Positions 7,860 through 60,866 of a stretch of 64,000 bases of DNA are shown here, one piece after another; the first letter of the stretch is position 1, and every line of letters starts with the position of its first letter. A program made the translations under genes and the position numbers. Under the pieces are notes generated by a model. That model did no database searches and was not told the origin of the DNA. It worked only from the letters and a program-made list of their open reading frames with translations. The DNA lies in the IMG/VR virus record IMGVR_UViG_3300032246_001967, positions 32,001 through 96,000 of that record. One strand, written 5' to 3'. The DNA is from a virus.

Positions 7860-9737
7860 ATGGCAAACACTAATTTATTCGCTCGTCTACAAAGACTATT
7901 CTCTACTGATGTTATTATCAGAAATCAAGGTGGAAATGAGCTTAAAGTACTAGACGTAGATAGCATCCAAAGATCAGGAGATGTAGCTACAAATTCCTTG
8001 ATGGATAGATATAATAGAATCTATTCACCTGCCGCTTCATCATTATACGGTCAGCAAGTTAATATTAATTATCAATACTTAAGAACCTTCATTTATTCAG
8101 ACTATGATATTATGGATAACGATGCAATTATTGCTTCTGCTCTTGATATCATTTCTGAAGAAGCTACTTTAAGAAATGAAATGGGTGAGGTATTACAAAT
8201 TAGATCTAACGACGAAGATATTCAACAAGTACTTTATAATTTATTTTATGATGTTTTAAATATTGAATTTAATCTATGGTCTTGGATTCGCCAAATGTGT
8301 AAATATGGTGATTTCTTTTTAAAATTAGAAATTGCTGAAAAATATGGTGTTTATAATGTAATTCCTTTTACTGCTTATCATATTGATAGACAGGAAAATT
8401 ATGATAAAGAACATCCAAACGCAGTAAGATTTAAATATTCTCCAGAAGGTATTTATGGTGGTAGTTCAGGTTACTATCCTACACCTAACATGACTGCTCA
8501 AAAAGATGAAAATTTTGTTTATTTTGAAAATTATGAAATGGCTCACTTCCGTTTAATGACGGATGTTAACTATTTACCTTATGGTAGAAGTTATTTAGAA
8601 CCAGCTCGTAGAATTTATAAACAATATGCTTTAATGGAAGATGCTATGTTAATTCATAGAATCTCACGTTCACCTGATAGACGTATTTTTTATATTAATG
8701 TTGGTTCTATTCCTCCTAATGAAGTAGAAAATTTCATGCAGAAAACTATTTCTACAATGAAACGTACTCCATTACAAGATAAACAAACTGGTGAGTATAA
8801 TTTAAAGTATAATATGCAGAACCTTATGGAAGATTTTTATATTCCAATTAGAGGTAATGATCAAACAACTAGAATTGATACTACTCCTGGTTTAGCTTAT
8901 GATGGTATTTCTGACGTTACTTATTTAAGAGATAAACTATTTGCTGCTTTAAAAGTACCTAAAGCGTTTATGGGTTATGATGAAAACTTACAAGGTAAAG
9001 CAACATTAGCAGCAGAAGATATTAGATTTGCTCGCACTATTGATAGATTACAACGTATTGTATTATCAGAATTATATAAAATCGCATTAGTACATTTATA
9101 TACTCAAGGTTACACTGCAGATAATTTAACTAATTTCGAATTATCATTAACTACTCCTTCTATTATTTACGACCAAGAACGTATTGCGTTAATGAAGGAA
9201 AAAATGGATTTAGCAGCCCAAATGATGGAAACCAAATTAATTTCATCAGATTGGATTTACGAAAATATATTCCATTTCAGTCAAGACCAGTATGAAGAAA
9301 TGAGAGATTTAATTGCACAAGACCAAAAACGTACTTTTAGATTTACTCAAATTGCTGAAGAAGGTAATGACCCAGTAGAAACAGGTAAATCTTATGGTAC
9401 ACCACATGATTTAGCTTCATTATATGGTAGAGGTAGATATTCAGCAAATGAATTACCTGATGGATATGATGAAAAAGCTCCTTTAGGTCGCCCTAAAGAA
9501 AAAGTATCAAATATTAATACTCAAGATAATCCATTTGGTAGAGATAGATTAGGTAGAAAAGATATGAAGGTGGATGATCAAGAAGGATATGGCAGACCTA
9601 AAAAAGATGTTTCTCCATTGGCCTTAGAAATAGTAGCTAAAAATAAAACCTTATTAGAATCTTTAGAAAAGAAAATTAATTTTAAAGAAACTGATGATAA
9701 GGAAATACTATTAGATGAATCTAAATTAAAGGAATAA
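7860..9737 (+). CDS. Portal protein (T4 gp20-like)
   Basis: LMEDAMLIHRISRSPDRRIFYI, EDFYIP, LFAALKVP; follows terminase. Confidence 0.95.
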   Translation: MANTNLFARLQRLFSTDVIIRNQGGNELKVLDVDSIQRSGDVATNSLMDRYNRIYSPAASSLYGQQVNINYQYLRTFIYSDYDIMDNDAIIASALDIISEEATLRNEMGEVLQIRSNDEDIQQVLYNLFYDVLNIEFNLWSWIRQMCKYGDFFLKLEIAEKYGVYNVIPFTAYHIDRQENYDKEHPNAVRFKYSPEGIYGGSSGYYPTPNMTAQKDENFVYFENYEMAHFRLMTDVNYLPYGRSYLEPARRIYKQYALMEDAMLIHRISRSPDRRIFYINVGSIPPNEVENFMQKTISTMKRTPLQDKQTGEYNLKYNMQNLMEDFYIPIRGNDQTTRIDTTPGLAYDGISDVTYLRDKLFAALKVPKAFMGYDENLQGKATLAAEDIRFARTIDRLQRIVLSELYKIALVHLYTQGYTADNLTNFELSLTTPSIIYDQERIALMKEKMDLAAQMMETKLISSDWIYENIFHFSQDQYEEMRDLIAQDQKRTFRFTQIAEEGNDPVETGKSYGTPHDLASLYGRGRYSANELPDGYDEKAPLGRPKEKVSNINTQDNPFGRDRLGRKDMKVDDQEGYGRPKKDVSPLALEIVAKNKTLLESLEKKINFKETDDKEILLDESKLKE

Positions 9738-9770: not shown

Positions 9771-10628
9771 ATGTTAATAAAACATTCCAAATATAAAAAC
9801 ACGGGACTTTTATTTGAACTTTTAGTTAGACAAATTACCTCTGACACATTGTCTGGTAAGGACTCTAAAGCAACTAACCTTTTAAAGAAATATTTTGTTA
9901 AAACAGAATTAAGTAGAGAATACAAGTTATACGAATCTTTATCAAAGTATAAAAATATTACTGAAGCTAAAGCAGAAACTGTAATTAATACATTAATTGA
10001 ATCTTCTAAAGAATTAAACAGAGGTGCTTTAAAAAGACAAAAGTATAATCTAATTAATGAGATTCAAAAGCATTATAACTTAGATGAATTTTTTAAGACT
10101 AAATTACCTAATTATAAAGCTTACGCTTCATTATATACGTTAATAGAAATATATAACAGCGAAAATTTATCCAACCCGGACCAAATTATTTCCAATAAAT
10201 TAAATATATTAGAACATTTATCTTCTAAATCAGTTGAAAAAACTAAAGTTGAGGATAATTTAATTGAAGAATTTAAATCATACGATAAAGATCTTAGAAT
10301 TTTAACTTACAAAGTAATGTTAGAAAAATTCAATGGTAAATATGCTGATTTAAATGATAATCAAAAAATAGTTTTAAAAGAATTTATCAATTCAGTAGAT
10401 TCTACTCCTAAATTAAGAGAATTTTATAATACTAAAATAGGAGAAATTAAATCTGAATTAACAAAATTAAATAAAAAAGTTACAAATAAAGCAATCCAGA
10501 TTAAAATTAACGAAATTCAAAATATTATTACTCCTTTAGGTAAAACATCTAAAATTGGTAATGATGATTTAGTTAATTTATTACAATATTATGAATTAAT
10601 AGATGAATTAGTTAAAATACATGGCTAA
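9771..10628 (+). CDS. Conserved head-region protein
   Basis: KHSKYKNTGLLFELL N-terminus; after portal; TATTTATA at 9749-9756. Confidence 0.55.
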   Translation: MLIKHSKYKNTGLLFELLVRQITSDTLSGKDSKATNLLKKYFVKTELSREYKLYESLSKYKNITEAKAETVINTLIESSKELNRGALKRQKYNLINEIQKHYNLDEFFKTKLPNYKAYASLYTLIEIYNSENLSNPDQIISNKLNILEHLSSKSVEKTKVEDNLIEEFKSYDKDLRILTYKVMLEKFNGKYADLNDNQKIVLKEFINSVDSTPKLREFYNTKIGEIKSELTKLNKKVTNKAIQIKINEIQNIITPLGKTSKIGNDDLVNLLQYYELIDELVKIHG

Positions 10629-11448
10629 TTTTAAATATAAAATAAAAGAAATTCAAGTAGGTGATGTCGAAATCGACAGAGGGACAAAATATACTGTAAA
10701 ATCAGTTGATCCTGAATCTGGAGCTATTGAATGGAGTGTAGAAAAAGTTGCTGATTATGAATCTTCTTTCGAAGAATTAAATAAAGCAAAAAACCTATTA
10801 GATAAACTTATTACAGCTCCAGGAGCAAAAGATGATATTAAAATTAGACAAATAGCTTCTCAAGTTAGAGACACTGTAAATAATTATAGAACTCATCTAA
10901 GAAAAAATTATCCTGAAGAATATAATAAAATCAAATCTTTATCCGAAGAAAGTACTACTGGTGGTGGAGTGGGACAAGCAAATTATACTTCAGGTACTGA
11001 AGGTGAAAATATAGCTACTAAATATGCTTTTAGTAAGAAAAAATTAAAAGAAGGTCCTGGTGCTTCAGTAGGTCCAGGTCCTAAAGCAGGTCCTGAAGGT
11101 GTTAAAGATAATACTTATGTAAAAAATTTTAAATATACTTTAGTTGATAAAAAAGCTTTAAATAAAGCTGCTAAAGGTATTGATGTTAAACCTTTATGGG
11201 AAGCTGAGTTTGATGTTGATGAATTAAATTTACAAAATCCTCAATTAAAAGATTGGATCCAAGAAAGAGTTCAATCTTTTGATGATATTGAAAGACAATT
11301 AAATGTTTTGGTAGGATTATTACAACAAGCAAAACAAGACACTATTCGTAAATATAGCCAAAATCCTAATTTTGCTGTTATTTATGGTACCGATATGGCT
11401 AAAGAATATTTAAACGACTTAATAGAATTATTTAAAAAACAACAATAA
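10621..11448 (+). CDS. Head-region protein with multiple L/I-x-E sites
   Basis: Between portal and protease; LSE, LKE and LWE separate short modules. Confidence 0.5.
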   Translation: MANFKYKIKEIQVGDVEIDRGTKYTVKSVDPESGAIEWSVEKVADYESSFEELNKAKNLLDKLITAPGAKDDIKIRQIASQVRDTVNNYRTHLRKNYPEEYNKIKSLSEESTTGGGVGQANYTSGTEGENIATKYAFSKKKLKEGPGASVGPGPKAGPEGVKDNTYVKNFKYTLVDKKALNKAAKGIDVKPLWEAEFDVDELNLQNPQLKDWIQERVQSFDDIERQLNVLVGLLQQAKQDTIRKYSQNPNFAVIYGTDMAKEYLNDLIELFKKQQ

Positions 11449-11450
11449 AC

Positions 11451-11684
11451 ATGGCAAATATACCAGTAAACGCAACCGGCATAGTATCAACAACAACAAT
11501 AACAGGTAGTTTTGGAGGATTTTCTGTAGTATCAGGATCAGCTGTATTCACAGGTTTAAAAGATGCTAATGGAAATATATTAGCAACTGTAGCTGCACCT
11601 TTAGTAATTAACTCTGGAGATACAATTCCTATTTATGTAACTAGCGCTTCTTTATCTTCTGGAGCAGTATTATTTTATTATTAA
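11451..11684 (+). CDS. Small beta-rich virion protein
   Basis: S/T/G-rich with TGS, SGS and SAS motifs. Confidence 0.45.
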   Translation: MANIPVNATGIVSTTTITGSFGGFSVVSGSAVFTGLKDANGNILATVAAPLVINSGDTIPIYVTSASLSSGAVLFYY

Positions 11685-11696
11685 TATTTATAACAA

Positions 11697-12581
11697 ATGG
11701 AAAAAACATTACAACAACAATATATTCTTATTAAAGAAGGCAAAGGAAACAAAGATGACTTTTTAAAAAGTGCTCGTCGTGTATTTCCTGAGTTTATTAC
11801 TCCATTAACTGACTATAAAACTGCTGTTAATATTCTAAAAAGCAAAAGTATTTTATCTGAATCAGTAAAACCTGTTGAAAAGAAAAACTGGTTTGAAATT
11901 TTTAATAAAAATATAAATGAAGCTGTAGGTGTTAAAAACACTAAAACTTATGGTGACCAAAATGAGTTTGATAAAATTGATTCTGAAGTACAAAAAACTT
12001 TAGATAAAGCTAATTTTAATAATAAAGACTCTAAAAATATTGATAACCTTTATGGTCAATCTTTCTTAATGGGTTATTATACTGAAATGAAAGATCCTAA
12101 AAACGCTGGAAAAACAGTAGATGAGTTAAAAGAAATTGTAGCTAAAAATATGGCTAAAGATATTAACTATTATGCTACAAATGCTTCATTTGGTGTTAAA
12201 GGTATTGGTTATGAAAAATCAAAAGAACAAAAAGACCCTAAAGGTAAATGGAAAGCTAGTGGATATGGTGATTTAAGTGAAGCTAAACGTCCTAATATTT
12301 CTTCAGAAATTAAAGAGATTGAAAAATCAAACGAAACATTAGCATTAGAAGCTAAAATAAAAGCAATTGATGAAGCTATTGAAAAAAGACAATCTAAATT
12401 ATCTATTGCTGAATCAGAAGAATTAGCTGAAATGATTGATCCTAAAATGGTTAAAACTCTTCAAAAAGAAATTAAAGAGTTAGAAAAATATAAAGCTAAA
12501 GCTGCTAAATTATATGAAAAAATAACTGGTAGTAAAAAACAAGAAGTTATAGACGAAGATAACGATTTAACTCAATATTAA
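11697..12581 (+). CDS. Prohead core/internal protein candidate
   Basis: TATTTATA at 11685-11692; IKE, LSE and INE sites; C-terminal coiled coil. Confidence 0.5.
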   Translation: MEKTLQQQYILIKEGKGNKDDFLKSARRVFPEFITPLTDYKTAVNILKSKSILSESVKPVEKKNWFEIFNKNINEAVGVKNTKTYGDQNEFDKIDSEVQKTLDKANFNNKDSKNIDNLYGQSFLMGYYTEMKDPKNAGKTVDELKEIVAKNMAKDINYYATNASFGVKGIGYEKSKEQKDPKGKWKASGYGDLSEAKRPNISSEIKEIEKSNETLALEAKIKAIDEAIEKRQSKLSIAESEELAEMIDPKMVKTLQKEIKELEKYKAKAAKLYEKITGSKKQEVIDEDNDLTQY

Positions 12582-12582
12582 T

Positions 12583-13188
12583 ATGAAACAAGTATTAATT
12601 GAAACCATACCGTTTAATGTATCACGTACACAATTACATGAGGGTTTAAAAGCTCCTTCGGGTAATCCTTTAGTTGAAGGTATTCTAGCTACAGCTGAAG
12701 TAAAAAATGGTAATGGTCGTTATTATCCAAAAGAGTTATGGGAAAGAGAAATTGACAAATACCAACAAATGGTTAGAGAAAATAGAGCAACAGGTGAATT
12801 AGATCATCCTGAGTCTTCTATTATATCTTTAAAAAACGTATCTCATATTATTAGAGAATGTTGGTGGGACGGAGATAAAGTAATGGGTAAAATAGAAATT
12901 TTACCTACTGTATCTGGTAATATTTTAAAAGCACTTATTGATAATAATGTAACAGTAGGTGTATCATCTCGTGGAATGGGTTCATTAAAACAAATTGGTG
13001 AAGGAACATTAGAAGTACAAGATGATTTTGAATTATTATGCTGGGACTTTGTATCAACCCCATCTAATCCAGGTTCATATATGACGTTAGTTAGAGAAGG
13101 TATTGAAAAACCTACAAATGATTATTCTAAAGTTAATTCTTTATTAACAGAAATCCTTTGTGCTAACGGAACCTGTCCAATATTTTGA
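12583..13188 (+). CDS. Prohead protease (T4 gp21-like)
   Basis: NGNGRYY, GELDHP, SH, GVSSRGMGS, DFVSTPS catalytic motifs. Confidence 0.95.
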   Translation: MKQVLIETIPFNVSRTQLHEGLKAPSGNPLVEGILATAEVKNGNGRYYPKELWEREIDKYQQMVRENRATGELDHPESSIISLKNVSHIIRECWWDGDKVMGKIEILPTVSGNILKALIDNNVTVGVSSRGMGSLKQIGEGTLEVQDDFELLCWDFVSTPSNPGSYMTLVREGIEKPTNDYSKVNSLLTEILCANGTCPIF

Positions 13189-13216
13189 CCTCTCTTGGGA
13201 TAGTATCCCTTGACTG

Positions 13217-13246
13217 ACCCTCCCCTAAAAAGGAGGGTTTCTTTTT
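13217..13246 (+). terminator. Intrinsic terminator
   Basis: ACCCTCC-CCTAAAAA-GGAGGGT then TTCTTTTT. Confidence 0.75.
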
Positions 13247-13268
13247 GCGTTTTTGAAATATTTTGATA

Positions 13269-13392
13269 TACGTATACCCGACAATATACGATTTTCTATA
13301 TCGTATTAAGATTTAAAATATCTATTACGCTTCGAGTAATCTATAATAAGCGTACTTCCAACAAAAATTATTTGAGGACAAAAAACAAACAA
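13269..13392 (+). promoter_or_regulatory. Variant late promoter (TACGTATA) and structured leader of scaffold/capsid operon
   Basis: Hairpins ATACGAT/ATCGTAT (13286-13306) and TACGCTT/AAGCGTA (13326-13354). Confidence 0.45.
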
Positions 13393-14466
13393 ATGGCAAA
13401 CAGAGACTTATTAAAAGAAGCCATTGCCGATGCTAAAGCTGTTAAGGAAACAGCCATCGCCAATGCAAAAGCTGCTCTTGAAGAAGCTTTTACTCCCATG
13501 CTTCGTGAAAAATTAGCTGCTAAAATAGCTGAAATGGATGAAATGGAAGAAGAAGTTGATTTAAAAGAAGCAGACGAAATGGAAGAAGGTCTTGAAGAAA
13601 CTTACGACAAAACTGATGAAGCTAAAGACATGGATAACATGGAAGAAGCTGAAAAAGTAGATGAAGTAGATCTTGAAGAACTTCTAAGAGAATTAGATGA
13701 ATTAGAAGAAGGTGAAGCGACAGGTGAAGAAGGATTTGGTAAATTTTCTTCAGACGGAACCGAAGGTTTCGATGGTGGAGACGGAGACACACAAGAAAAA
13801 GCATTAGATGAAGCTGAAGGTGAAGAAGATTATGAAGATAAAGATGCAGATGGTGTTGAAGATTCAGAAGATGAAGAAATTGACATCGAAAACATGGACG
13901 AAGATGATCTTAAAAAATTCATTGAAAGTGTAATCGCTGACATGGTTGAATCTGGCGAATTAGAAGCTGGCCATGAAGGTGAAGAAGGTGAAGAGGGAGA
14001 AGAAGGTGAAGAAGATGAAGAAGGTGAAGAAGAAATGAGTATGGATATGATGGCTGAGGTTAAGAAAGCTAAAAAAGATGCTGAAGAATCTAAAAAAGCT
14101 AAAGAAAAAGCTGAAAAAGAGCTTAAAGAAGCTTATGATGCTTTAGAAGCAATTAAAACTGAACTTAACGAAGTTAACTTATTCAACGCTAAATTACTTT
14201 ACACTAACAAAATCTTCAAAGCTAAGAATTTGAACGAATCACAAAAAGTAAAAGTATTAGCTGCTTTTGATAAAGCGGCTAGTGTAAAAGAAGCTAAATT
14301 AGTATTTGAAACTCTATCAGCTGGTTTCAATGAAAAGAAAGCTCCTATGAATGAATCATTAATCCGTGGTGGTGCTTCAAAAGCTGCAGGTGTAGCTACT
14401 AAAAAGCCAATTATGGAAGCTAATGATCAGGTTGCAAGATGGCAAAAATTAGCTGGTATCAAATAA
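13393..14466 (+). CDS. Prohead scaffolding protein
   Basis: Very acidic coiled coil between protease and capsid; many LxE sites; ATG at 13393 after an A-rich tract. Confidence 0.85.
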   Translation: MANRDLLKEAIADAKAVKETAIANAKAALEEAFTPMLREKLAAKIAEMDEMEEEVDLKEADEMEEGLEETYDKTDEAKDMDNMEEAEKVDEVDLEELLRELDELEEGEATGEEGFGKFSSDGTEGFDGGDGDTQEKALDEAEGEEDYEDKDADGVEDSEDEEIDIENMDEDDLKKFIESVIADMVESGELEAGHEGEEGEEGEEGEEDEEGEEEMSMDMMAEVKKAKKDAEESKKAKEKAEKELKEAYDALEAIKTELNEVNLFNAKLLYTNKIFKAKNLNESQKVKVLAAFDKAASVKEAKLVFETLSAGFNEKKAPMNESLIRGGASKAAGVATKKPIMEANDQVARWQKLAGIK

Positions 14467-14494
14467 AAAATAAAAACAAAAACAAATAACAAAA

Positions 14495-16174
14495 ATGTCA
14501 CAAGTACAACAACTTTTAGAAAGCGCAGCAGGTTCTTGGAAGAGCATGCAAAGCGACGCAGCCAAATTATCCGGCAAATGGATTAAAACTGGCTTATTAG
14601 AAGGTTTAGGTGAGATTGATAAGAATAACATGTCAATCTTATTAGAAAACCAAGCAAAACAGTTAGTAATGGAATTTAACCAAATCTCTACTAACTCTTA
14701 CTTTACTAGCGGTACTCAAGGTGAAAACTGGGCTGGTATTGCTTTACCATTGGTTCGTAAGGTATTCGGAACTATCGTAGCGAAAGAGTTCGTTTCAGTT
14801 CAACCTATGAACATGCCTTCAGGTCTAGTGTTCTTCTTAGATTTCCAATATGGTAACACTAAGAACCCATTTGCAACTGGTGATTCTTTATATGGTCAAA
14901 GAAACGCTTCTGGTCAGTTCCCATTTGCTACTACTGCCCCTTCAGGTGCTTTATATGGCGCTGGTAAGTTTACTTACTCAACTAACCAAACTTCATCTAC
15001 AGTAGTAACAACTTCAGGTTCTAACATTAGCTCAGCTTCTTTTGCTGATGTTAACTTTGATTCTAATTTCTCAGCTTCTGTAGCTGCTGGTAACATCAAG
15101 AAAATTGCTATCTCTAGTTCAAGAGCTACTAACTTAGTTTCTATGGATTTAGATGCGGTTCGTGGTTTCATCATTACTTCAGGTTCAGTTACTGTTGGTG
15201 CTAACTTACCTCAGTTCTTTACTTATGATTACACTAACGATACTGTAAACTTCTTCGTTTCTGCTTCTACTGCTCAAATCGGTGGTGCTTCTGGTGTTAA
15301 CACTTACACAGTGTTCTACAACAAGTTAACTACTGACCAGTACAGAGGTGACTTTGAAGAATCAAGTTCATACTCAACTCCTAACTCTTTAAGTACTTCA
15401 ACTATCATTATCCCTGAGATCAATGTTAAAATGCAGTCACAAGCTATCACAGCTAAGACTAAGAAGTTAAAAGCTGTTTGGACTCCTGAGTTTGCACAAG
15501 ACTTAGCTGCTTACCAAAACATCGATGCTGAAGCTGAATTAACTAACATCATGAGTGAGTACATTTCAATGGAAATTGATCTTGAAATCTTAGATATGTT
15601 AATTGAAGATGCTGCTGCTGGTACTGAATATTGGTCAGTTGTTAACAACACTGTAATTACTGGTTCTGGTGCTGGAGCTGTTCCTACAACTTTAGCTTCT
15701 GGTTACTACAATACTCAAGGTCAATGGTTCCAAACTTTAGGAACTAAGATCCAAAAGTTAAGTAACAGAATCCACCAGTTAACTTTAAGAGGTGGTGCAA
15801 ACTTCATCGTAACTTCTCCTACAGTTGCTACTGTTCTTGAATCTATCCCAGGATTTGCTTCTACTTCAAACGGTGAAGCTGAACAAATGGAATATGCATT
15901 CGGTGTACAGAAAGTTGGTAGCGTAAACGGTCGTTACAAGGTTTATAAAAACCCTTACTTAACTGAAAACTTAATCTTAATGGGTTACAAAGGATCTCAA
16001 TTCCTTGAGACTGGTGCTGTATTTGCTCCTTATATCCCAATGATTATGACTCCATTAGTGTACGATCCTGATACCTTCACTCCACGTAAAGGTTTATTAA
16101 CTCGTTACGCTAAGAAGATGTTACGTCCTGAATTCTATGCTAAGATCTATGTTAATGGTTTAAACACCATCTAA
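14495..16174 (+). CDS. Major capsid protein (T4 gp23-like)
   Basis: VSVQPMNMPSGLVF, KLKAVWTPEFAQDL, FAPYIP, F.PRKGLLTRY; biased high-expression codons. Confidence 0.97.
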   Translation: MSQVQQLLESAAGSWKSMQSDAAKLSGKWIKTGLLEGLGEIDKNNMSILLENQAKQLVMEFNQISTNSYFTSGTQGENWAGIALPLVRKVFGTIVAKEFVSVQPMNMPSGLVFFLDFQYGNTKNPFATGDSLYGQRNASGQFPFATTAPSGALYGAGKFTYSTNQTSSTVVTTSGSNISSASFADVNFDSNFSASVAAGNIKKIAISSSRATNLVSMDLDAVRGFIITSGSVTVGANLPQFFTYDYTNDTVNFFVSASTAQIGGASGVNTYTVFYNKLTTDQYRGDFEESSSYSTPNSLSTSTIIIPEINVKMQSQAITAKTKKLKAVWTPEFAQDLAAYQNIDAEAELTNIMSEYISMEIDLEILDMLIEDAAAGTEYWSVVNNTVITGSGAGAVPTTLASGYYNTQGQWFQTLGTKIQKLSNRIHQLTLRGGANFIVTSPTVATVLESIPGFASTSNGEAEQMEYAFGVQKVGSVNGRYKVYKNPYLTENLILMGYKGSQFLETGAVFAPYIPMIMTPLVYDPDTFTPRKGLLTRYAKKMLRPEFYAKIYVNGLNTI

Positions 16175-16206
16175 TATAGCCTAGAAAGGATATAATTAAG
16201 TAAAGA

Positions 16207-16240
16207 AGAGCCTAGAGATTTCTAGGCTCTCTTTATTTCT
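16207..16240 (+). terminator. Intrinsic terminator after capsid gene
   Basis: AGAGCCTAGA-GATT-TCTAGGCTCT then CTTTATTTCT. Confidence 0.75.
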
Positions 16241-16288
16241 AGGTACTTACTATATATTTATACTCAACATAGTTATAAAATAAATTTT

Positions 16289-17203
16289 ATGAAAGAAACA
16301 CCAAGTCAGTTACCTATTCAAAGTTATGTGATGAATTTCCCGTTCACCTTATCAACAGAAGATCCAAATAACATTTGGATGCAAGAACTAACTGATGATG
16401 AGTTAAGAGTTAACAAACCAAAAGCTTATAAACAATTTATGGATTTATATCAGTTTATGGCTGGTGGATCTTTAGTTTATTTATTACCTGCTGAAGGCAA
16501 TTTTCAAGATCAAGTTTATGTAGCTAACTTAGGTATTCATTTACCTCATATTAAAAATGAAAATCATATTGTTTTATCTAACTTTACTTCTGATCCTCGT
16601 AAAGGTGAAGAATTAGTAGGTGAAAAATTTTTTAACCAAATGGGTTATAAAACAGCTATTTCTCCTTACAAATGGGAAGGTGAAGCTGATTTAAAATACC
16701 TTTATGGTAACAAATATATTGGTGGTTATGGTATTCGTTCCAATATTAAAACATATGAATGGATGGAAGAACAATACAATATGGATATTATTAAGGTTGC
16801 CATGACCGATGAATATCTTTATCATTTAGATTGTTCTATATTCGCGTTAAACACAGAACAAACATTGATTTGCACCGAGTTATTTGACTCTGAAGAACTC
16901 GCGTTAATAGAAAGAGAAACAGAAATTATTGATATTGATGTTGAAGATGCTTTAGGTGGATTAACTAACTCTGTTAGATATGGTAACATGATTTTATGTG
17001 CTTCTAATATTTCTGAGTTAAAAAAATCTCATGAATATTATGAAGGTGAAAAACATAAAATTGAAACATTAGAAAAAATTTGTTCTAATGCTGGTATGGA
17101 ACCTGTTATCTTCAATTTATCAGAATATATGAAATCAGGTGCTATGCTTTCTTGTATGGTAATGCATTTAAATAGAGTTGATCATAATAGAATTTTACTA
17201 TAA
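16289..17203 (+). CDS. Amidinotransferase/arginine dihydrolase-fold (pentein) enzyme
   Basis: DQVYVAN, R.GE, EGEAD, YHLDC, SEYMKSGAMLSC catalytic D/H/C set; TATTTATA at 16255-16262. Confidence 0.8.
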   Translation: MKETPSQLPIQSYVMNFPFTLSTEDPNNIWMQELTDDELRVNKPKAYKQFMDLYQFMAGGSLVYLLPAEGNFQDQVYVANLGIHLPHIKNENHIVLSNFTSDPRKGEELVGEKFFNQMGYKTAISPYKWEGEADLKYLYGNKYIGGYGIRSNIKTYEWMEEQYNMDIIKVAMTDEYLYHLDCSIFALNTEQTLICTELFDSEELALIERETEIIDIDVEDALGGLTNSVRYGNMILCASNISELKKSHEYYEGEKHKIETLEKICSNAGMEPVIFNLSEYMKSGAMLSCMVMHLNRVDHNRILL

Positions 17204-17922
17204 TGGCACAAACATTACAAGAATGGTTAAATACTGAAGTTAAGCAACTTCAAAAAATGCCTGTTGGTGATTTATCTAATACTTTCTTTTTTAGAGATCC
17301 TATTAGACCTAATTTTATAGACCATGAACATTTTTATAGTCCAGCTGATGGAACTATTTTATATCAGAAATTCATTAAAGATCCTACTGAACCTATAGTT
17401 GAGATTAAAGGATTAAATTACACACTACAAGATGTCGTAGGCGATGATGAATACAATACCCCTTCATTAGTTATCGGTATATTCATGTCGTTCTACGATG
17501 TTCATATAAATCGCATACCTTACGGAGGTATTTTAAAATATAAACCACTAGACGCTATACAGTCAACTAATAAACCAATGTTAGCTGTAGAAAAGGATAT
17601 CTTAAATAAAAAGATTAATCCTGCTAATATGGAGTATTTAAAATATAATGAAAGAATGTGGAATCAAATTTACTCACCTTCTTTAGATTACAAATATTAT
17701 CTTATTCAGATTGCTGATGAGGATGTAAACGTAATTGCTCCTTTTACAAATTCACAGAATGATATATTTGCTCAAAATGAAAGATTTTCTTTAATTAGAT
17801 GGGGTTCTCAAGTTGATTTAGTATTACCGTTAGATGAAAGATTTGATTTTGAACTTTGTCTTGATGATGCAATGCATGTGCAAGCAGGAATAGATAAGAT
17901 TATTAAAATAATAAATAAATAA
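17203..17922 (+). CDS. Phosphatidylserine-decarboxylase-family pyruvoyl proenzyme without membrane anchor
   Basis: FFRDP.R, SPADG, IFMS..DVHINR.P, NER, IRWGSQVD (G/S autocleavage site). Confidence 0.8.
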   Translation: MAQTLQEWLNTEVKQLQKMPVGDLSNTFFFRDPIRPNFIDHEHFYSPADGTILYQKFIKDPTEPIVEIKGLNYTLQDVVGDDEYNTPSLVIGIFMSFYDVHINRIPYGGILKYKPLDAIQSTNKPMLAVEKDILNKKINPANMEYLKYNERMWNQIYSPSLDYKYYLIQIADEDVNVIAPFTNSQNDIFAQNERFSLIRWGSQVDLVLPLDERFDFELCLDDAMHVQAGIDKIIKIINK

Positions 17923-17923: not shown

Positions 17924-18613
17924 ATGGCATCAAACCATTACGAGGATGAAGTATTTAAAAATAAAAGAATACCTAAAAATCCAATTAAATTCGGAATTAC
18001 TCTGAATGAAGAACAAAAAAAAGCTAAAGAAGATATTTTAAACAATGACATTGTAGCTTTAAAAGGTAAAGCAGGATCTGGTAAAACAGCAACTGCCTTA
18101 CAAGTAGCTTTAGATCAATTGTTTAAAAGAGAAATAGAAAAAATTATAATTGCTCGTCCTTATGTAACTGCTGGTGAAGATATTGGACATTTACCAGGAG
18201 GAGTTGATGATAAATTAGCTTATTTAACTGCTCCTATATATAATATAATGCATGAGTTAGTAGGTAAAGAAAAATCAGAAAAATTAGTTAATGAAGGACA
18301 AGTTTTAGTAGCTCCTTTTGGATTTTTAAGAGGTAATACATTTTCTAACTGTTATGTTTTGATTGATGAAGCACAAAACGCTTCTATGAAACAAACAGAA
18401 TTAATGATTGGTCGTTTAGGTAGAAACTCTAAAATGATTTTTTGTGGAGACATGTCTCAATGTGATTTAAAAAATAAAAAAGACTCGGGTTTTGATTTCT
18501 TTTTAAAACTAGAAATTGAAGTACCTAAAGTTAAAGTAATTACATTAGAAAAAAACCACAGACATGAAATAGTAGAACCTGTGTTAAAAGTGTTTGCTGC
18601 TTATAGAGATTAA
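17924..18613 (+). CDS. phoH: PhoH family ATPase
   Basis: GKAGSGKT, GHLPG, FLRGNTF, DEAQN, GDMSQCD, RH. Confidence 0.92.
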   Translation: MASNHYEDEVFKNKRIPKNPIKFGITLNEEQKKAKEDILNNDIVALKGKAGSGKTATALQVALDQLFKREIEKIIIARPYVTAGEDIGHLPGGVDDKLAYLTAPIYNIMHELVGKEKSEKLVNEGQVLVAPFGFLRGNTFSNCYVLIDEAQNASMKQTELMIGRLGRNSKMIFCGDMSQCDLKNKKDSGFDFFLKLEIEVPKVKVITLEKNHRHEIVEPVLKVFAAYRD

Positions 18614-18650
18614 TATTTTCCCCTGTATCTTTAATATTTATAAATAAACT

Positions 18651-19025
18651 ATGGCTGCAGGTAAATATAATATAGTAATAGAACAAGGAGCAACGTACGA
18701 CATTACAATTGCTTATAAAGATTCTAACAACAATCCTATTGACTTAACAGGATTTGGAGGAAGAATGCAAATTAGACCTTCTATAGGATCTACAACCACT
18801 TATCTATGTCTATCTAGTAGTTTACAAGCTGATGGAACAGGTTTAGAGTTTTTATCACCTACTACATCAGGATCTATAAAACTTTATATTTCTGCTATTA
18901 GTTCTTCAATGTTAAATTTTGATCAAGCTGTTTATGATTTAGAAATTGCTTCTGGTTCTTATGTAAGTAGAATACTACAGGGTGGTGTAAAATTATCTAA
19001 AGAAGTAACAACCGGTATTTGCTAA
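18651..19025 (+). CDS. Virion structural protein (BppU-like beta domain)
   Basis: IEQGAT, PIDLTG, YDLEI, RILQG pattern; late motif at 18635-18642. Confidence 0.55.
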   Translation: MAAGKYNIVIEQGATYDITIAYKDSNNNPIDLTGFGGRMQIRPSIGSTTTYLCLSSSLQADGTGLEFLSPTTSGSIKLYISAISSSMLNFDQAVYDLEIASGSYVSRILQGGVKLSKEVTTGIC

Positions 19026-20182
19026 TGAGTGATAAAATTTACATATCATCACAAGATAACCAAGTTAATTTATCTCAAAACAATAATATAGTAGTAATTA
19101 CCGACAGTGATCAAAACCAAATTACCGTCACTCAACCAGTTACTGCTGTTCTTGAAATAAATACACCAGGCCCCCCAGGCCCTCCAGGTCCACAAGGCCC
19201 TCCGGGTACTGGAAGTTTTGATACAGGATCTTTTGCAACTACAGGATCAAATAATTTTATAGGCACTCAAACAATTAACGGGAATTTAACTATCACCGGA
19301 TCAACAGCAGGAACTTATGGTACTATCAGTAGAATAAATTTTGTTTCTGGAGCTGCTATTGTAGTAGACGGGCCTAACATGGATTTAGTTGCTGGTCCAG
19401 AAGGATGGTCTGAATTAGCTTCTAACAACGGTGAAAATTATGTTTGGGTTGATAATGAAGGAGTAAAATTAGTAACTGGCTGGAATACATCAGCCCACCA
19501 GTGGTTAATAAATCTATCAGGATCTCTAAATGCTGCTGGAGATTTAAATATGAACGGTAATTATATTACCGGATCAATTAGTGGGTCACTTACCGGTTCT
19601 TTACTAGGTACTTCATCATATTCTAATCAATCATTAAGTTCAAGTTATGCTTTAACTGCATCCTATTTAGATAATTATATTGCTCCCTTTCCTTACACAG
19701 GTTCGGCTATAATTACCGGTAGTTTAGTAGTCACAGGTAGTATAAGATCTACTAATGGATTTACCGGCTCTTTACAAGGTACTTCTTCATTTGCAATAAC
19801 TGCTTCTACTTCTATTACTGAATCAAGAACAATTACTTTTAATTTAGGAAGTATCCCAACCCCAATAACAACTGGAAGTAAAACTAATAATATATTCTAC
19901 TCACCATACTCAGGGTCTATAAAAGGATTTATTTTAACATCAAATACAAGTTCAACAACAACCTTAGATATTTGGAAAAGAAATAATACTTTACCTACAT
20001 CTTCAGATACTATTATAACAACAAATAAACCTCAGTTAATAAACAACCAATTTACTAGTTCATATAATGTATCAGGATGGACAACTTTATTTAATCCAAA
20101 TGATGTATTTTTAATAAATGTTGAAACAAATACAAGTGCTTCAAATTTAACTTTACAATTAATAACAGAAATCTATAAATAA
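19025..20182 (+). CDS. Fibre-like virion protein with short collagen repeat
   Basis: PGPPGPPGPQGPPG then TGS-rich repeats. Confidence 0.65.
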   Translation: MSDKIYISSQDNQVNLSQNNNIVVITDSDQNQITVTQPVTAVLEINTPGPPGPPGPQGPPGTGSFDTGSFATTGSNNFIGTQTINGNLTITGSTAGTYGTISRINFVSGAAIVVDGPNMDLVAGPEGWSELASNNGENYVWVDNEGVKLVTGWNTSAHQWLINLSGSLNAAGDLNMNGNYITGSISGSLTGSLLGTSSYSNQSLSSSYALTASYLDNYIAPFPYTGSAIITGSLVVTGSIRSTNGFTGSLQGTSSFAITASTSITESRTITFNLGSIPTPITTGSKTNNIFYSPYSGSIKGFILTSNTSSTTTLDIWKRNNTLPTSSDTIITTNKPQLINNQFTSSYNVSGWTTLFNPNDVFLINVETNTSASNLTLQLITEIYK

Positions 20183-54491: not shown

Positions 54492-55268
54492 ATGAAGATA
54501 TCACATGAAGTTCCTATTTGTTTGCTAGATGATAGTCTAGACTTTAATGACTATCAATATTGTTTACCTCACTTGCTAGATCAAGATGAGGATTATAAAA
54601 AGTTTTTTTATGAAGCTAAAAAAGAAGGTGTTTATATTATAATGGACAACTCGCTTCATGAACTTGGTCATGCATATGATAGATCTCGTTTAATATATTG
54701 GATAAATGAGTTAAAACCAAATGAATTTATTGTACCTGACGTTTGGCAAGATACAAATGCTTCTGTAGTTAATGCTAGAGAATGGATCAATATTGAATTA
54801 CCTAATGAAGTTACTAAAGTAGCTGTTGTTCAAGCTACTAATTATACCGATGCTGCTGTTTGCTATCAGATTTATAAGGATCTAGGTTATAAGAAAATTG
54901 CCTTTTCATATGGTGCTGAATATTATTTAAATCATTCACATCATCCTAATAAAAATTTAGCTAAAGCATTAGGTCGTATTGAGGTAGTTAGTAGAATGTA
55001 TGATATGGGTTTAATTAAATCAACAGATAGAGTACATTTATTAGGTTGTCAAGTACCTCAAGAATTTAGTTGGTATAAAGGTATGAATTTTATCGAAACT
55101 ATTGATACATCAAATCCTATTATGGCTACTTTAGATGGTATTCAATACGGTCATAATGGTTTAAGAGAAAAACCAAAATCAAATATGAATGATAATTTTT
55201 ATACTACAGAAATTGATTATAACTTACTTGATTGGAATTTGAGAATGTTTAGAAAATTATTAAAATAA
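54492..55268 (+). CDS. TGT-fold protein, probable DpdA-type DNA deazaguanine transglycosylase
   Basis: IMDNS, PD, V.Q, VHLLG, IDTS motifs of TGT/DpdA barrels; close to queCDE/folE. Confidence 0.6.
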   Translation: MKISHEVPICLLDDSLDFNDYQYCLPHLLDQDEDYKKFFYEAKKEGVYIIMDNSLHELGHAYDRSRLIYWINELKPNEFIVPDVWQDTNASVVNAREWINIELPNEVTKVAVVQATNYTDAAVCYQIYKDLGYKKIAFSYGAEYYLNHSHHPNKNLAKALGRIEVVSRMYDMGLIKSTDRVHLLGCQVPQEFSWYKGMNFIETIDTSNPIMATLDGIQYGHNGLREKPKSNMNDNFYTTEIDYNLLDWNLRMFRKLLK

Positions 55269-55747
55269 TGCAAGTATTTTTACCATACCCCGACTTTAAA
55301 ACATCTTTAGAATCTCTAGACGATAAACGTTTAGGTAAACAAAGAGTTGAAACTTATCAATTAATTGCTGGTTTAGAAGGTAGACCAACATTAACTGGTA
55401 AAGCATATTCTAAAGGCCGAGTTAACCACCCTATAAGCCAGATGTTTAGAGATAATATACCTGCGTTGAAACAATATTTAAACGACTCTATAGACGTTTG
55501 GGTTGCTCGAGGTAAAAATAACACTATGAAAAAAGAAGTGATTAATGAAGAAATCATTATGCCTGTTTGGTTTGGTGATTCTGATTTTCATAAATCACAT
55601 AGAGCAAATCTTTTAAGAAAAGATGCTATTTATTATGGCGCGCATGGTTGGACAGATAATCCTACTTTACCTTATAGATGGTATGATATGGATAAAAAAC
55701 AATGGTATGACCAAACAGCAGGAACTAAAGAAAAAATATATATTTAA
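55268..55747 (+). CDS. Pyrimidine-dimer glycosylase/DenV-like family protein
   Basis: MQ.FLP, LD.KRLGKQRVE, NHP, W..RG, SHR.NLLRKD. Confidence 0.7.
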   Translation: MQVFLPYPDFKTSLESLDDKRLGKQRVETYQLIAGLEGRPTLTGKAYSKGRVNHPISQMFRDNIPALKQYLNDSIDVWVARGKNNTMKKEVINEEIIMPVWFGDSDFHKSHRANLLRKDAIYYGAHGWTDNPTLPYRWYDMDKKQWYDQTAGTKEKIYI

Positions 55748-56116: not shown

Positions 56117-56554
56117 ATGGAACCACATACATTTACAACTACAGGAACATCAAACACGGCCATTGGCTATGAACAAACAGGGTACAGCGGTATAGTGACA
56201 ACCGGAAACAGTAACCTTGATTACGGAACTATTACCAACTTTAAAACCTCAGGAACAACATACACAACTGAAGGCCTTAACATACAACCCTTTACTTTTT
56301 CCCACCCAGTTGGGGGTACAACATTAACAGTAAACAATACAACAAATAATAGAATTATGCAAAACAAAGTAGCAATTTTTAAAGTAACAAGAGACGAAGA
56401 CGAAAAAATCATTAAGACCGAATTTTTAAAAGAAATGTGGGTAGAAACTAAAAACGGACAAACAGTAGATTTTCAAGTAGCTAGAGACAAAGATTTAGCT
56501 GGTTATGAAATGTCTGATTTAATTATTAAAACTATCTTTTCATTAACATTCTAA
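56117..56554 (+). CDS. Hypothetical protein with Thr-rich N-terminus
   Basis: Open frame; ATG at 56117; alternative start at 56357. Confidence 0.5.
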   Translation: MEPHTFTTTGTSNTAIGYEQTGYSGIVTTGNSNLDYGTITNFKTSGTTYTTEGLNIQPFTFSHPVGGTTLTVNNTTNNRIMQNKVAIFKVTRDEDEKIIKTEFLKEMWVETKNGQTVDFQVARDKDLAGYEMSDLIIKTIFSLTF

Positions 56555-57441
56555 TGAAGAAACAAGCAGTATTATCATTGAGTGGAGGTATGGATTCTTC
56601 CACTCTACTGCTTCATCTACTTGCCAATGGCTATGAAGTAACAGCATTATCTTTTGACTATGGTCAAAAACACTCTATTGAATTGGAGCGTGCTAAAGAA
56701 TTAGTTAATTATTTAAATCAAACCAGATATCAAAATAATAGAGCCCCAGGTCCTTTACAGGGGAGTAAAGAAGATTACTCACCAATTAAATATCAAGTAA
56801 TTAAACTTGATGGTTTAAGCCAATTGCTCAATTCAGCACTTGTAACAGGCGGAGATGAAGTTCCTGAAGGACATTATGCTGAAGAAAATATGAAAGCAAC
56901 TGTTGTTCCTAATAGGAATAAAATCTTTAGTTCAATTATTCAAGCAGTAGCTTTATCAATTGCTGAATCTAAAAATACAGATGTTCACATCGCAATGGGT
57001 ATTCATGCTGGTGATCATAGTATTTATCCTGATTGTAGACAAGAATTTAGAGACATTGATTATGAAGCTTTTAAAGTAGGTAATTGGGGTGCTGAAAAAG
57101 TAGCTTATTATACTCCTTATTTATTAGGTGATAAATTCGATATTTTAAAAGATGGAGAGAAATGTTGTGAGACATTAGGACTTGATTTTGATGAAATTTA
57201 TAGACGTACAAACACATCTTATAAACCAATGGTTCATATTGTTTTTGATAATTACGATAATCCATCACCAGAATGGTTTAGTGATTATAAATCAGCAAGT
57301 TCAGTAGAACGTGTAGAAGCATTTATGAAATTAGGTAGAAAAGATCCTGTACCTTATGCTGACGAATTTGGACCAGTAACTTGGGATTTCGTAAAAGAAT
57401 ACGTATCTTCAGTATTAGATGAGCATTCGAAGACAATATAG
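56554..57441 (+). CDS. queC: 7-cyano-7-deazaguanine synthase
   Basis: SGGMDS, FDYGQ.H..E, TVVPNRN, H.GDH..YPDCR.EF. Confidence 0.92.
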   Translation: MKKQAVLSLSGGMDSSTLLLHLLANGYEVTALSFDYGQKHSIELERAKELVNYLNQTRYQNNRAPGPLQGSKEDYSPIKYQVIKLDGLSQLLNSALVTGGDEVPEGHYAEENMKATVVPNRNKIFSSIIQAVALSIAESKNTDVHIAMGIHAGDHSIYPDCRQEFRDIDYEAFKVGNWGAEKVAYYTPYLLGDKFDILKDGEKCCETLGLDFDEIYRRTNTSYKPMVHIVFDNYDNPSPEWFSDYKSASSVERVEAFMKLGRKDPVPYADEFGPVTWDFVKEYVSSVLDEHSKTI

Positions 57442-57791: not shown

Positions 57792-57834
57792 GTGTGTTCC
57801 TTGATTTTGTAATATTTATAAACATGGAACACAC
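57792..57834 (+). promoter_or_regulatory. Hairpin covering endonuclease ATG with late promoter in loop
   Basis: GTGTGTTCC/GGAACACAC stem; TATTTATA at 57813-57820; ATG at 57824. Confidence 0.75.
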
Positions 57835-58422: not shown

Positions 58423-58668
58423 ATGAAAAAATTATTTTATTTTACTAGTTTAGGATGTGTTCCTTGCCAAACGTTTAGTCCAATAATGGAGCAAATATCG
58501 GCTTTAATACCTGTAGAAAAAGTTATTACAGATTATGAAATGAGTAAAGCAATATCAGCAAATGTAAGATCAGTTCCTACTGTAATACTTGTAGAAAATG
58601 AACAAGAAGTTAGAAGATTTACAGGAGCAAAAAGTTATCAAGACGTAATGAATTTTATTAATGGGTAA
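58423..58668 (+). CDS. Thioredoxin
   Basis: CVPC, VRSVPT, RFTG. Confidence 0.85.
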   Translation: MKKLFYFTSLGCVPCQTFSPIMEQISALIPVEKVITDYEMSKAISANVRSVPTVILVENEQEVRRFTGAKSYQDVMNFING

Positions 58669-59134
58669 GTATCAATCAACAAAATTATTTGATAACTACT
58701 CAGTAGCAATTAGACAGTGGAAAGCTCAACATTCACACTGTCAGTTGTTGCATGGGTATGCTTTAAAATTTAAAGTATGGTTTGAATCAGTAGAACCACT
58801 AGAAGAAAATCAGTTAGACGAGATGAACTGGATTCAGGATTATGGTGGGTTTAAATCAGCACCTCAAGGTAATGGTTTAAAAGACTGGATGGATTATATG
58901 TGGGACCATACTTTATTAATTGAAAAAGATGATCCGTATTTAGATTTATTCGAGTCGATGAATCCAACAGTATGCCATTTAAGAGTAATGGATAAGATTG
59001 GAGCTGAAAGTGCTGCTAAATTAGTTTTTGATAAATTCAATGATGTTTTATCAAAACAAGGTGGTGGACGTGTTAAAGTAACAAAAGTAGAATGTTGGGA
59101 AGCTGACAAAAACAGTTCAATTTATCAAGAGTAA
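58661..59134 (+). CDS. queD: 6-carboxytetrahydropterin synthase
   Basis: SHC.LLHGY, DYG, WDH, GAE, WE..KNS. Confidence 0.85.
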   Translation: MGKYQSTKLFDNYSVAIRQWKAQHSHCQLLHGYALKFKVWFESVEPLEENQLDEMNWIQDYGGFKSAPQGNGLKDWMDYMWDHTLLIEKDDPYLDLFESMNPTVCHLRVMDKIGAESAAKLVFDKFNDVLSKQGGGRVKVTKVECWEADKNSSIYQE

Positions 59135-59925
59135 TGACAACAGAAATTAAAAAACCAGGTCGTATTACCGATTATAGTAAAAAATTACCTATCCTTGAAA
59201 TTTATACCTGTGTTCAATCAGAAGGTTCAAGACAGGGTAGACCTACAGTAGCAATTAGAACCACAGGATGTACTCATAGATGTTGGTTTGGTGAAGGTGG
59301 ATGGTGTGATAGTTGGTATACAAGTATTCATCCTGAAAAAGGTATTTATACTTTCAACGACATTGTTAAGATTTATGATGAGAATCCACATATTAGAGAG
59401 ATGATGTTAACAGGTGGTTCACCAACAATGCAACCTGATTTAGTTAATGAACTAACTCACTTTGCTTATCAACGTGGTATATTTATTACTATTGAAACGG
59501 AGGGTTCCCATTATGTTGAAACAGATTATCCTATTGGTCTTATCTCTTTGTCTCCTAAGTTCTCTAATAGTGTGCCTCGTATTGATGTCACCACTCCTCT
59601 TGGTAAGTTGGTTGACCAAAAAATGATTGACCAGCATAACAAGCTTAGATTAAATAGAGAAGCAATTAGACAAATGTTAGATTATCATGCTGACTACCAT
59701 TACAAGCCAGTTTGGGACGGCACAGCTGAATGCTTGGCTGAGATTGAAGAATTCAGACAGGAAATGGATATTCCAAAATGGAAAACCTGGTTGATGCCTG
59801 CAGGCGATACTAGAGAGACTTTAATTGAGATGTATCCAAAATCCATTGAGTTATGTATGGAGATGGGTTATTGTTGGACAGGTAGAGATCATATCATAGC
59901 ATATGATCAAAAACGTGCCGTCTGA
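59134..59925 (+). CDS. queE: 7-carboxy-7-deazaguanine synthase (radical SAM)
   Basis: Q.EG...G.P, R..GC...C...CDS, TGG.P, IETEG, SPK. Confidence 0.9.
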   Translation: MTTEIKKPGRITDYSKKLPILEIYTCVQSEGSRQGRPTVAIRTTGCTHRCWFGEGGWCDSWYTSIHPEKGIYTFNDIVKIYDENPHIREMMLTGGSPTMQPDLVNELTHFAYQRGIFITIETEGSHYVETDYPIGLISLSPKFSNSVPRIDVTTPLGKLVDQKMIDQHNKLRLNREAIRQMLDYHADYHYKPVWDGTAECLAEIEEFRQEMDIPKWKTWLMPAGDTRETLIEMYPKSIELCMEMGYCWTGRDHIIAYDQKRAV

Positions 59926-60211: not shown

Positions 60212-60451
60212 ATGGGAAATTTAAGAAATAGGTACACAAGTGAAGAATGGGATGAACTAGATTCTAAAATTAAAGCTGATAAAAAGCAAGGTAAGCCAAG
60301 TGAAAGGGTGTTGTATTTATCTATTGTAGGTAAAGATGTTAATGAACTTATACATCTTAGAAATACTCTTTATAATTTTTACAGCCATGATGAATTATCA
60401 ACTTTAAATGAGTGGATTAATTGGAAAGCCTTTAAACAACAAGAACAATAA
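60212..60451 (+). CDS. Hypothetical protein
   Basis: AAGTTATG start; fills gap. Confidence 0.55.
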   Translation: MGNLRNRYTSEEWDELDSKIKADKKQGKPSERVLYLSIVGKDVNELIHLRNTLYNFYSHDELSTLNEWINWKAFKQQEQ

Positions 60452-60464
60452 AAGCAACAATTTA

Positions 60465-60866
60465 ATGGACTTACTATCAACACATCCTGTTAAAAAATTA
60501 GATTTAGGTTTCCATGGCAATCTATTCGGCGGGCAATTGCTTAGCTGGATAGATGCCGCGGTTGCTGCTTATGCAATGGAAAAATGTAGAAGTCAAAATA
60601 TGATTACTATTGCCATTGATGAGTGTGTATTTAAAAAACCAGCCAAAGAAAAAAATCTAGTTAAGATATACGCTGAAATGATTAAGGTAGGAAATACATC
60701 TGCTACTTTTAAAGTAGAAGCAAGAGCTTATAATGTATTTAGAGGTGATGAAGTCACTTTATTATCTACAAGTATGACTTTTGTAAGAGTAGATGATGAA
60801 GGAATACCTATTTCAATTTCTAAACAAGTAAAAGACCAATTTAATCCTCCTCCAACTAAACTTTAA
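60465..60866 (+). CDS. Hotdog-fold acyl-CoA thioesterase (YciA-like)
   Basis: HGNLFGG.LL.WID, F.KP, VGNTS, TFV.VD..G.P. Confidence 0.85.
   Translation: MDLLSTHPVKKLDLGFHGNLFGGQLLSWIDAAVAAYAMEKCRSQNMITIAIDECVFKKPAKEKNLVKIYAEMIKVGNTSATFKVEARAYNVFRGDEVTLLSTSMTFVRVDDEGIPISISKQVKDQFNPPPTKL

Follow-up and report, generated by a model that had tools for sequence, protein, structure and literature searches.

ArgZ (Sll1336) and AgrE (Alr4995) are cyanobacterial arginine dihydrolases with solved structures (PDB 6juy, 6lrf); going by their record names, the dihydrolase domain is fused to a second domain, which we take to be the one that uses ornithine. In human dimethylarginine dimethylaminohydrolase 1 (DDAH1), D73 contacts the alpha-amino group of the substrate, E78 and D79 the guanidine, and R98 and R145 the alpha-carboxylate, alongside H173 and C274 (PMC10958460). 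The phosphatidylserine decarboxylase (PSD) of E. coli cleaves itself with a D90/D142-H144-S254 set, requires acyl chains on its substrate, and is inactive on serine and phosphoserine (PMC7952604). Ao-ADC1 from Aspergillus oryzae is a PSD-family pyruvoyl arginine decarboxylase (ADC) of 483 amino acids (aa), with solved structures (PDB 9JER, 9JF5; PMC12904898). For viruses, the main survey of polyamine enzymes (PNAS, 2023) describes pyridoxal phosphate-dependent ornithine decarboxylase (ODC), pyruvoyl ODC and ADC derived from S-adenosylmethionine decarboxylase, and arginase; its main text reports no arginase in phages, and makes no mention of phosphatidylserine, dihydrolase, amidinotransferase, Campylobacter, or Bacteroides (PMC9992855). 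The present analysis concerns two adjacent genes of a T4-like phage, contained in a stretch of 64,000 nucleotides (nt), hereafter the window, which covers positions 32,001 to 96,000 of the 128,324-bp IMG/VR virus record IMGVR_UViG_3300032246_001967 (completeness estimate 78%).

Gene 1 encodes an ArgZ/AgrE-like pentein and gene 2 a PSD-fold protein that looks soluble, and the two are neighbors in nearly all phage and bacterial loci surveyed. Most likely, the product made from arginine is a small amine. Judged from sequence, the pair may convert arginine to ornithine and ornithine to putrescine, a reading to which a probability of about 0.42 is assigned. A first-pass annotation, made from the letters alone, had proposed such a route, timed to head filling; as a whole, that interpretation is partly supported.

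Gene 1 Is an ArgZ/AgrE-Like Pentein

Gene 1 (16289..17203, + strand) encodes a stand-alone pentein of 304 aa, a putative L-arginine dihydrolase with the motifs DQVYVAN (residues 74-80), EGEAD (130-134), and YHLD (178-181), and with Cys289 near the C-terminus. It matches no Pfam family at E ≤ 1, including the agmatine deiminases (PF04371), and its PHROGs match, phrog_12759, is of unknown function. The best NCBIfam matches (arginine dihydrolase, ArgZ, and DDAH, ~75 bits each) all lie far below their cut-offs: 76.7 bits vs. 450 and 74.5 bits vs. 1025 for the ArgZ/AgrE models NF052232 and NF052231, and 74.5 bits vs. 300 for the DDAH model NF045659. When 177,635 PDB sequences were searched, only ArgZ/AgrE were found, both with gene 1 alone (E 5.4e-14) and with a profile of 89 relatives (six sequences, best E 2.4e-27); the profile search gave no DDAH structure and no amidinotransferase at E ≤ 0.001. 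The likeness to ArgZ/AgrE given in the first-pass annotation is borne out, since these are the only solved relatives.

The residues that would carry the reaction are strongly conserved. All 89 relatives keep D74, R104, E130, H179, and D181; 88 keep N80, R150, and C289, and 86 keep A79. In the profile alignment, D74-x-x-Y/F-x-A79-N80 corresponds to D65-x-x-F-x-A70-N71 of AgrE, in which N71 is presumably important for the second hydrolysis step; E130 corresponds to E118, R104 and R150 correspond to R90 and R139 (and by spacing to R98 and R145 of DDAH1), and YHLD carries the histidine. The DDAH1 motif differs, reading D73-x-x-F76-x-E78-D79 (PMC10958460). Because an A-N pair replaces the E-D pair, the gene 1 family is of the ArgZ type and not of the DDAH type; with the guanidine clamp replaced by A79-N80 and the NF045659 score so far below its cut-off, a DDAH identity is not supported. 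All 120 relatives of gene 1 listed are 304 aa long, and gene 1 carries no C-terminal fusion.

The same residues bear on the order of the steps. In an alternative route, the PSD-fold enzyme would be an arginine decarboxylase, and the pentein would then hydrolyze agmatine to N-carbamoylputrescine or directly to putrescine. Since D74, R104, and R150, at the alpha-amino and alpha-carboxylate positions of DDAH1, are kept in 88-89 of 89 relatives, arginine appears the better candidate substrate than agmatine; this homology argument is the principal one for arginine, and the lack of a match to PF04371 likewise speaks against an agmatine-hydrolyzing pentein. The conservation of these residues fits the order arginine, ornithine, putrescine.

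Gene 2 Has the Phosphatidylserine Decarboxylase Fold

Gene 2 (17203..17922, + strand) encodes a putative pyruvoyl-type decarboxylase proenzyme of 239 aa, with the motifs FFFRDP (residues 28-33), QIADED (169-174), and G201-S202. It matches PF02666 with 85.2 bits (cut-off 22; E 6.2e-24) over profile positions 6-193 of 198, and its best score against the NCBIfam PSD equivalogs is 74 bits, where the cut-offs are 183 or more. The PHROGs match is phrog_12670, of unknown function. A structure predicted from 94 relatives (pLDDT 92.1) has the PSD fold, its nearest neighbors being E. coli PSD, PsiD, and Ao-ADC1. D49, D99, H101, G201, and S202 align with D90, D142, H144, G253, and S254 of the E. coli enzyme (PMC7952604), and all five, like Q203, are the same in each of the 94 relatives. 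The proenzyme is predicted to cut itself between G201 and S202.

The protein looks soluble. Averaged over 19-residue segments, Kyte-Doolittle hydropathy peaks at 0.95 in the window protein and nowhere exceeds 1.42 among the 94 relatives; the peak falls in the protein core, near residue 85, and the first 40 residues are hydrophilic throughout the family (-0.9 to 0.0). The fold alignment begins at residue 39-40 of E. coli PSD, a position within the helical domain that binds the membrane; gene 2 thus has nothing that corresponds to part of these N-terminal helices. PSD-fold membership, the GS cleavage motif, and the absence of a hydrophobic anchor had all been claimed in the first-pass annotation and are borne out by the PF02666 match, the model and fold comparison, and the hydropathy of the whole family. 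Its further statement that no decarboxylase of this class was known for the job holds only in part, as a PSD-family arginine decarboxylase, Ao-ADC1, has been described (PMC12904898). PSD-fold enzymes that take free amino acids as substrates, tryptophan for PsiD and arginine for Ao-ADC1, provide a precedent for amino acid decarboxylation by gene 2.

Gene 2 could instead be a true PSD, with which the phage remodels the membrane lipid of its host, the pentein being unrelated. The PF02666 match and the names given by depositors agree with this, as does the nearest fold, that of E. coli PSD, in which the phosphate-contacting Y137 aligns with Y98 of gene 2 (PMC7952604). However, 10 of the 94 sequences have F at position 98, the protein lacks a hydrophobic or membrane segment, and the score against the PSD equivalogs falls well short. 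In addition, 18 of the 20 pair-bearing genomes checked contain a separate, better-scoring canonical PSD (140-222 bits over the whole profile). Given also the strict pairing with an arginine-type enzyme, a true PSD is highly improbable.

The Two Genes Are Paired in Phages and Bacteria

A lack of co-occurrence in relatives was named in the first-pass annotation as a result that would refute its proposal, and the proposal passes this check decisively. The best 80 of 222 related IMG/VR contigs were compared; in 77 of them the pentein gene sits immediately 5' of the decarboxylase gene (one of the 77 has a 757-nt insert), and the other three have no upstream DNA. The bacterial survey comprised 72 loci from GTDB species genomes with a full-length decarboxylase relative (43-74% identity), and in 69 of them the pentein is the same-strand neighbor of the decarboxylase, separated from it by 2-236 nt. 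The decarboxylase comes first in 66 of these 69; the three pentein-first loci look like phage contigs in bins. Of the three non-adjacent loci, one is truncated, another is a scrambled contig of 2.6 kb, and the third is a complete chromosome whose pentein lies 615 kb away. A Streptomyces locus (L110) carries two divergent PSD-like copies, at 8973-9692 (-) and 10001-10717 (+), each ~48% identical to the query. Among longer proteins there were five matches, none of them a fusion with the pentein, which is weak evidence.

Seven phylum-level groups appear in the record titles. The pentein tree tracks the bacterial phyla, with 8 label changes vs. 31.4 in shuffles, which implies long residence in cells. 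Among cultured phages, pentein matches occur in 47 records, namely 40 from Campylobacter (all 124-135 kb), six from Bacteroides, and one distant DDAH-like match from Xanthomonas; decarboxylase matches occur in 45 records, 39 from Campylobacter and six from Bacteroides. The two genes are adjacent in Bacteroides phage SJC03. Campylobacter Fletcherviruses also carry the pair, and in phage NCTC12673 ~42 kb separate the genes, the pentein lying between the replication genes for gp41 and gp45. In three Campylobacter phage records (PV052266.1, PV052264.1, PP921807.1), the pentein match is in 2-4 pieces or annotated coding sequences, reflecting either sequencing frameshifts or decaying genes. The best explanation of this distribution is a self-contained metabolic cassette that bacteria inherit as a whole and that several phage lineages have acquired.

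Genomic Context and Possible Products

Neighbor clustering of 70 bacterial loci, for which the open reading frames (ORFs) of high-GC DNA were re-called with a GC3 filter, found no third partner gene common across phyla. Most bacterial loci consist of the pair alone amid unrelated housekeeping genes. In three of three Verrucomicrobiales genomes there is no above-cut-off match to PF01276, PF00491, PF04371, PF02675, PF01862, or PF01916, models that cover the known ADC, ODC, agmatinase, agmatine deiminase, SpeD, and deoxyhypusine-synthase-type families; each genome has one match to PF02784, which is presumably LysA. Located ~1.6 kb from the pair is a PotD/PotF-like binding protein, seen in 14 loci in all. 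These absences and this neighbor speak for a polyamine role. In one of the loci (L153, 13311-15981) and 13 other Verrucomicrobiales loci, the binding protein is directly followed by a Cache-HAMP hybrid histidine kinase, and the two could form a polyamine-sensing system.

The actinomycete loci are of another kind. In five operons (L115, L116, L119, L144, L151; ~9800-17800), the PSD-like gene and the pentein are followed by an ABC exporter, and then by a gene for PAD_porph or for a protein of 295-303 aa of unknown kind. A nonribosomal peptide synthetase (NRPS) C-A-T module follows in L151, a PRMT5-like methyltransferase lies on the opposite strand in L115, and in L107 and L143 the pair is likewise bordered by ABC exporters. 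Such an operon looks like a small arginine-derived natural-product cluster. The links to an exporter and an NRPS are a hint that the product is possibly a specialized amine.

On this basis, the pair might serve to make a guanidino-amine or a natural-product building block. The pentein would be an amidinotransferase with arginine as donor, or the amine made by the pair would be passed on to other enzymes, and the resulting specialized amine would be exported or joined to a peptide; in phages it might be attached to DNA or virion parts. Besides the actinomycete neighbors, the depositors' name "amidinotransferase" for the Campylobacter phage gene and a note in the NCTC12673 record citing similarity to AF210249_12, which we take to be part of the bleomycin cluster, point this way, and the conserved arginine-binding residues would suit a donor site equally well. 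Yet most bacterial loci are the pair alone, with no third gene across phyla, and what the profile retrieves from the PDB at E ≤ 0.001 are hydrolases, ArgZ/AgrE, with no amidinotransferase among them. There is also no tie to 7-deazaguanine DNA modification (see below). A building-block role of this kind is quite unlikely.

Proposed Route and Significance

In the arginine-to-putrescine route favored here, the gene 1 hydrolase would bind L-arginine via its alpha-amino and alpha-carboxylate groups and hydrolyze the guanidino group, the products most likely being ornithine, CO2, and two NH3. The gene 2 proenzyme would cut itself between G201 and S202, forming an N-terminal pyruvoyl group, and the soluble enzyme would decarboxylate the free amino acid supplied by gene 1, that is, ornithine to putrescine. 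The cassette, together with the phoH gene that follows it in the phage, would be transcribed from a motif common to structural genes (see below). The infected cell would therefore make the diamine and release ammonia while virions are being built.

A number of observations weigh against this route. The carboxylate-binding role of R104 and R150 is drawn from homology to DDAH1 and from our own count of AgrE residues, and the gene 2 model is ~2 Z units closer to E. coli PSD than to the amino acid decarboxylases. The 128-kb phage record contains no match to speD or speE, and the "immuto" phages, the closest cultured phages by capsid, are absent from the matches for either gene. The absences in Verrucomicrobiales are weak evidence because the genomes are metagenome bins. 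In actinomycetes, the genomes with exporter-linked pairs also have an ordinary ODC-speD-speE-like cluster; with the exporter and NRPS context, the cassette looks there like specialized metabolism and not like bulk polyamine supply. Campylobacter and Bacteroides make putrescine via agmatine, in line with the reverse order of steps introduced above. An agmatine-deiminase-family (PAD_porph) gene shares the operon in L115 and L119, and a PSD-fold arginine decarboxylase with solved structures, Ao-ADC1, already exists (PMC12904898); both point to agmatine. Nevertheless, in addition to the conserved arginine-type residues of the pentein, gene 2 does not match Ao-ADC1 at the level of sequence (E ≤ 0.01), and the occurrence of two penteins in one operon suggests that they have different jobs. 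The agmatine route is somewhat unlikely. What is left of the probability falls to something else.

A bolder reading, which is unlikely, would see in the pair a new mobile arginine-to-amine route. Its second step would be a third, unrecognized fold class of pyruvoyl ornithine decarboxylase, or a decarboxylase whose substrate is some new amino acid derived from arginine. Phages from three or more host groups would then put the product into the particle or onto DNA during virion production, rather than topping up host polyamines.

If the proposed conversion is correct, arginine would reach putrescine through two enzyme folds not known together for that job, and the pair would account for the diamine of bacteria in which no decarboxylase for arginine or ornithine is recognized, the three Verrucomicrobiales genomes being examples. 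As an auxiliary module of the polyamine type, it would have escaped the main survey of such enzymes in viruses. The cassette is common to abundant aquatic T4-like phages, gut Bacteroides phages, and Campylobacter phages used for biocontrol. In public annotation, family members appear as "phosphatidylserine decarboxylase" (2405 clusters) and "dimethylarginine dimethylaminohydrolase" (2071 clusters), and both names are probably wrong.

Locus Organization and Transcription Signals

All elements of the two-gene module described in the first-pass annotation are present, from the ORFs and the quoted motifs to the position after the capsid gene and the TAATG junction, in which the TAA stop of gene 1 overlaps the ATG of gene 2. 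The upstream gene encodes a gp23-type major capsid protein (14495..16174; PF07068, 6.8e-75). Its closest cultured relatives are those of the Flavobacterium "immuto" myophages (53.5% identity), so a host in Bacteroidota is likely. Downstream, a gene for a PhoH-like ATPase (17924..18613, + strand; PF02562, 2.8e-56) starts one base after the gene 2 stop. The next gene is phoH in 78 of the 80 viral loci, the remaining two ending first, and the bacterial pair loci contain no phoH match. The next ATATTTATAA copy is at 18635. The phoH gene is probably in one transcript with the pair, in the window phage lineage only.

Upstream of the pair come a terminator hairpin and the motif ATATTTATA, which recurs. 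The intrinsic-terminator-like hairpin with its T-run lies directly 3' of the capsid gene (16207..16230, + strand) and has a 10-pair stem with five G-C pairs, a loop of 4, and the tail CTTTATTTCT; the region contains five terminator-like sites vs. 1.5 ± 1.3 in shuffles. The putative late promoter TATTTATA (16255..16262, + strand) is one of the recurrent upstream copies and lies 26 nt 5' of the ATG; its extended form is ATATTTATAA, here ATATTTATAC. In the window, TATTTATA occurs 38 times vs. 22.4 ± 4.9 expected, a count reached in 0 of 100 shuffles. Of 27 copies on the + strand, 17 precede an ORF start on that strand by no more than 40 nt (actual distance 3-26 nt), all of them in the structural region and in the longer form ATATTTATAA. 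These 17 sites before structural-gene start codons, for instance at 23, 705, 5177, 11685, 22645, 28894, and 32927, are often spaced 3-10 nt from the start.

The TATTTATA/ATATTTATAA motif is thus an upstream element common to structural genes, and it may act as a promoter. In that case, many late transcripts would have almost no leader; another possibility is that ATATTTATAA is a translation-start element of a host that does not use Shine-Dalgarno sequences. On the coding strand the motif is ATATTTATAA and not the T4-type late consensus, which we take to be TATAAATA; TATTTATA is the reverse complement of that octamer and therefore a different element. For the promoter that the first-pass annotation had assigned to the pair, the over-representation of the motif and its place upstream of structural ORFs are real, and the promoter role itself is inferred. 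The proposed timing to head filling draws only on the position beside the capsid gene in the window lineage; in NCTC12673, the pentein sits among replication genes ~42 kb from the decarboxylase.

Nearby, a very acidic protein of 364 aa with E/D-rich repeats is encoded just 5' of the capsid gene (13372-14466) and may be a scaffold, and a tail-region protein (19019-20182) contains a collagen-like GPPGPPGPQGPPG run. A denV-like pyrimidine-dimer DNA glycosylase is encoded at 55268-55747 (PF03013, 7.4e-17).

7-Deazaguanine Genes

The window also encodes a 7-deazaguanine precursor pathway, ~40 kb from the gene pair, with QueC (56554..57441), a QueD-like protein (58661..59134), and a radical-SAM QueE-like protein (59134..59925); a 4HBT thioesterase gene is found at 60408..60866. 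Between queC and queD lies a GIY-YIG/NUMOD homing-endonuclease-like ORF (57794-58405; weak Pfam matches, E ~2e-3). Given this pathway, the phage DNA is probably guanine-modified. The 128-kb record has no match to PF01702 (TGT/DpdA), a model that a divergent DpdA3-type enzyme could escape, and the related "immuto" phages have a DpdA3-type transglycosylase (PMC10516641).

A tie between the gene pair and this modification was considered, given the que genes of the window and the unusual guanine replacements of Campylobacter phages, and rejected. QueC is absent from SJC03 and NCTC12673, which, with the distance of the que genes from the pair, argues against a link. Moreover, CP220, a dADG phage (PMC10516641), is not among the 47 pentein-bearing phage records, and the bacterial loci are without such genes.

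Comparison with Known Systems

No publication describing the gene pair was found in the literature searched, which covered PMC9992855 and PMC10516641 without their supplements. For gene 1, the only solved relatives are ArgZ/AgrE. They share with it the D-x-x-F/Y-x-A-N motif, both arginines, E-G-x-x-D/E, YHLD, the C-terminal Cys, and a similar domain size, as well as the pairing of a dihydrolase domain with a product-using enzyme. In contrast to ArgZ/AgrE, gene 1 is stand-alone and has no ornithine cyclodeaminase-like domain, its partner being a separately encoded decarboxylase; identity is low, as reflected in the 76.7 bits against an NCBIfam cut-off of 450.

Gene 2 resembles Ao-ADC1 and the tryptophan decarboxylase PsiD (8X4Q) in its PSD fold, its predicted G-S self-cleavage to a pyruvoyl enzyme, and its apparent solubility; those two act on free amino acids, as gene 2 is proposed to do. 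However, both are fungal and much longer than the 239 aa of gene 2 (PsiD chains have 346-350 residues), identity is 10-14% with no sequence-level match, and the cleavage motif is R-[YWF]-G-S-Q in the gene 2 family and not GGST/LGST. For neither of them is a pentein partner reported. With E. coli Psd (PDB 6L06/7CNW), gene 2 shares the D/D-H-S set, the G-S site, and PF02666, but it lacks the membrane-binding N-terminal helices and falls below every NCBIfam PSD cut-off, and its family is a paralogue beside canonical PSD in 18 of 20 genomes. Finally, the pair resembles the surveyed viral polyamine enzymes in its proposed putrescine end product, in the logic of leading from arginine or ornithine to putrescine, and in its pyruvoyl cofactor, whereas it differs from them in using other folds for both steps.

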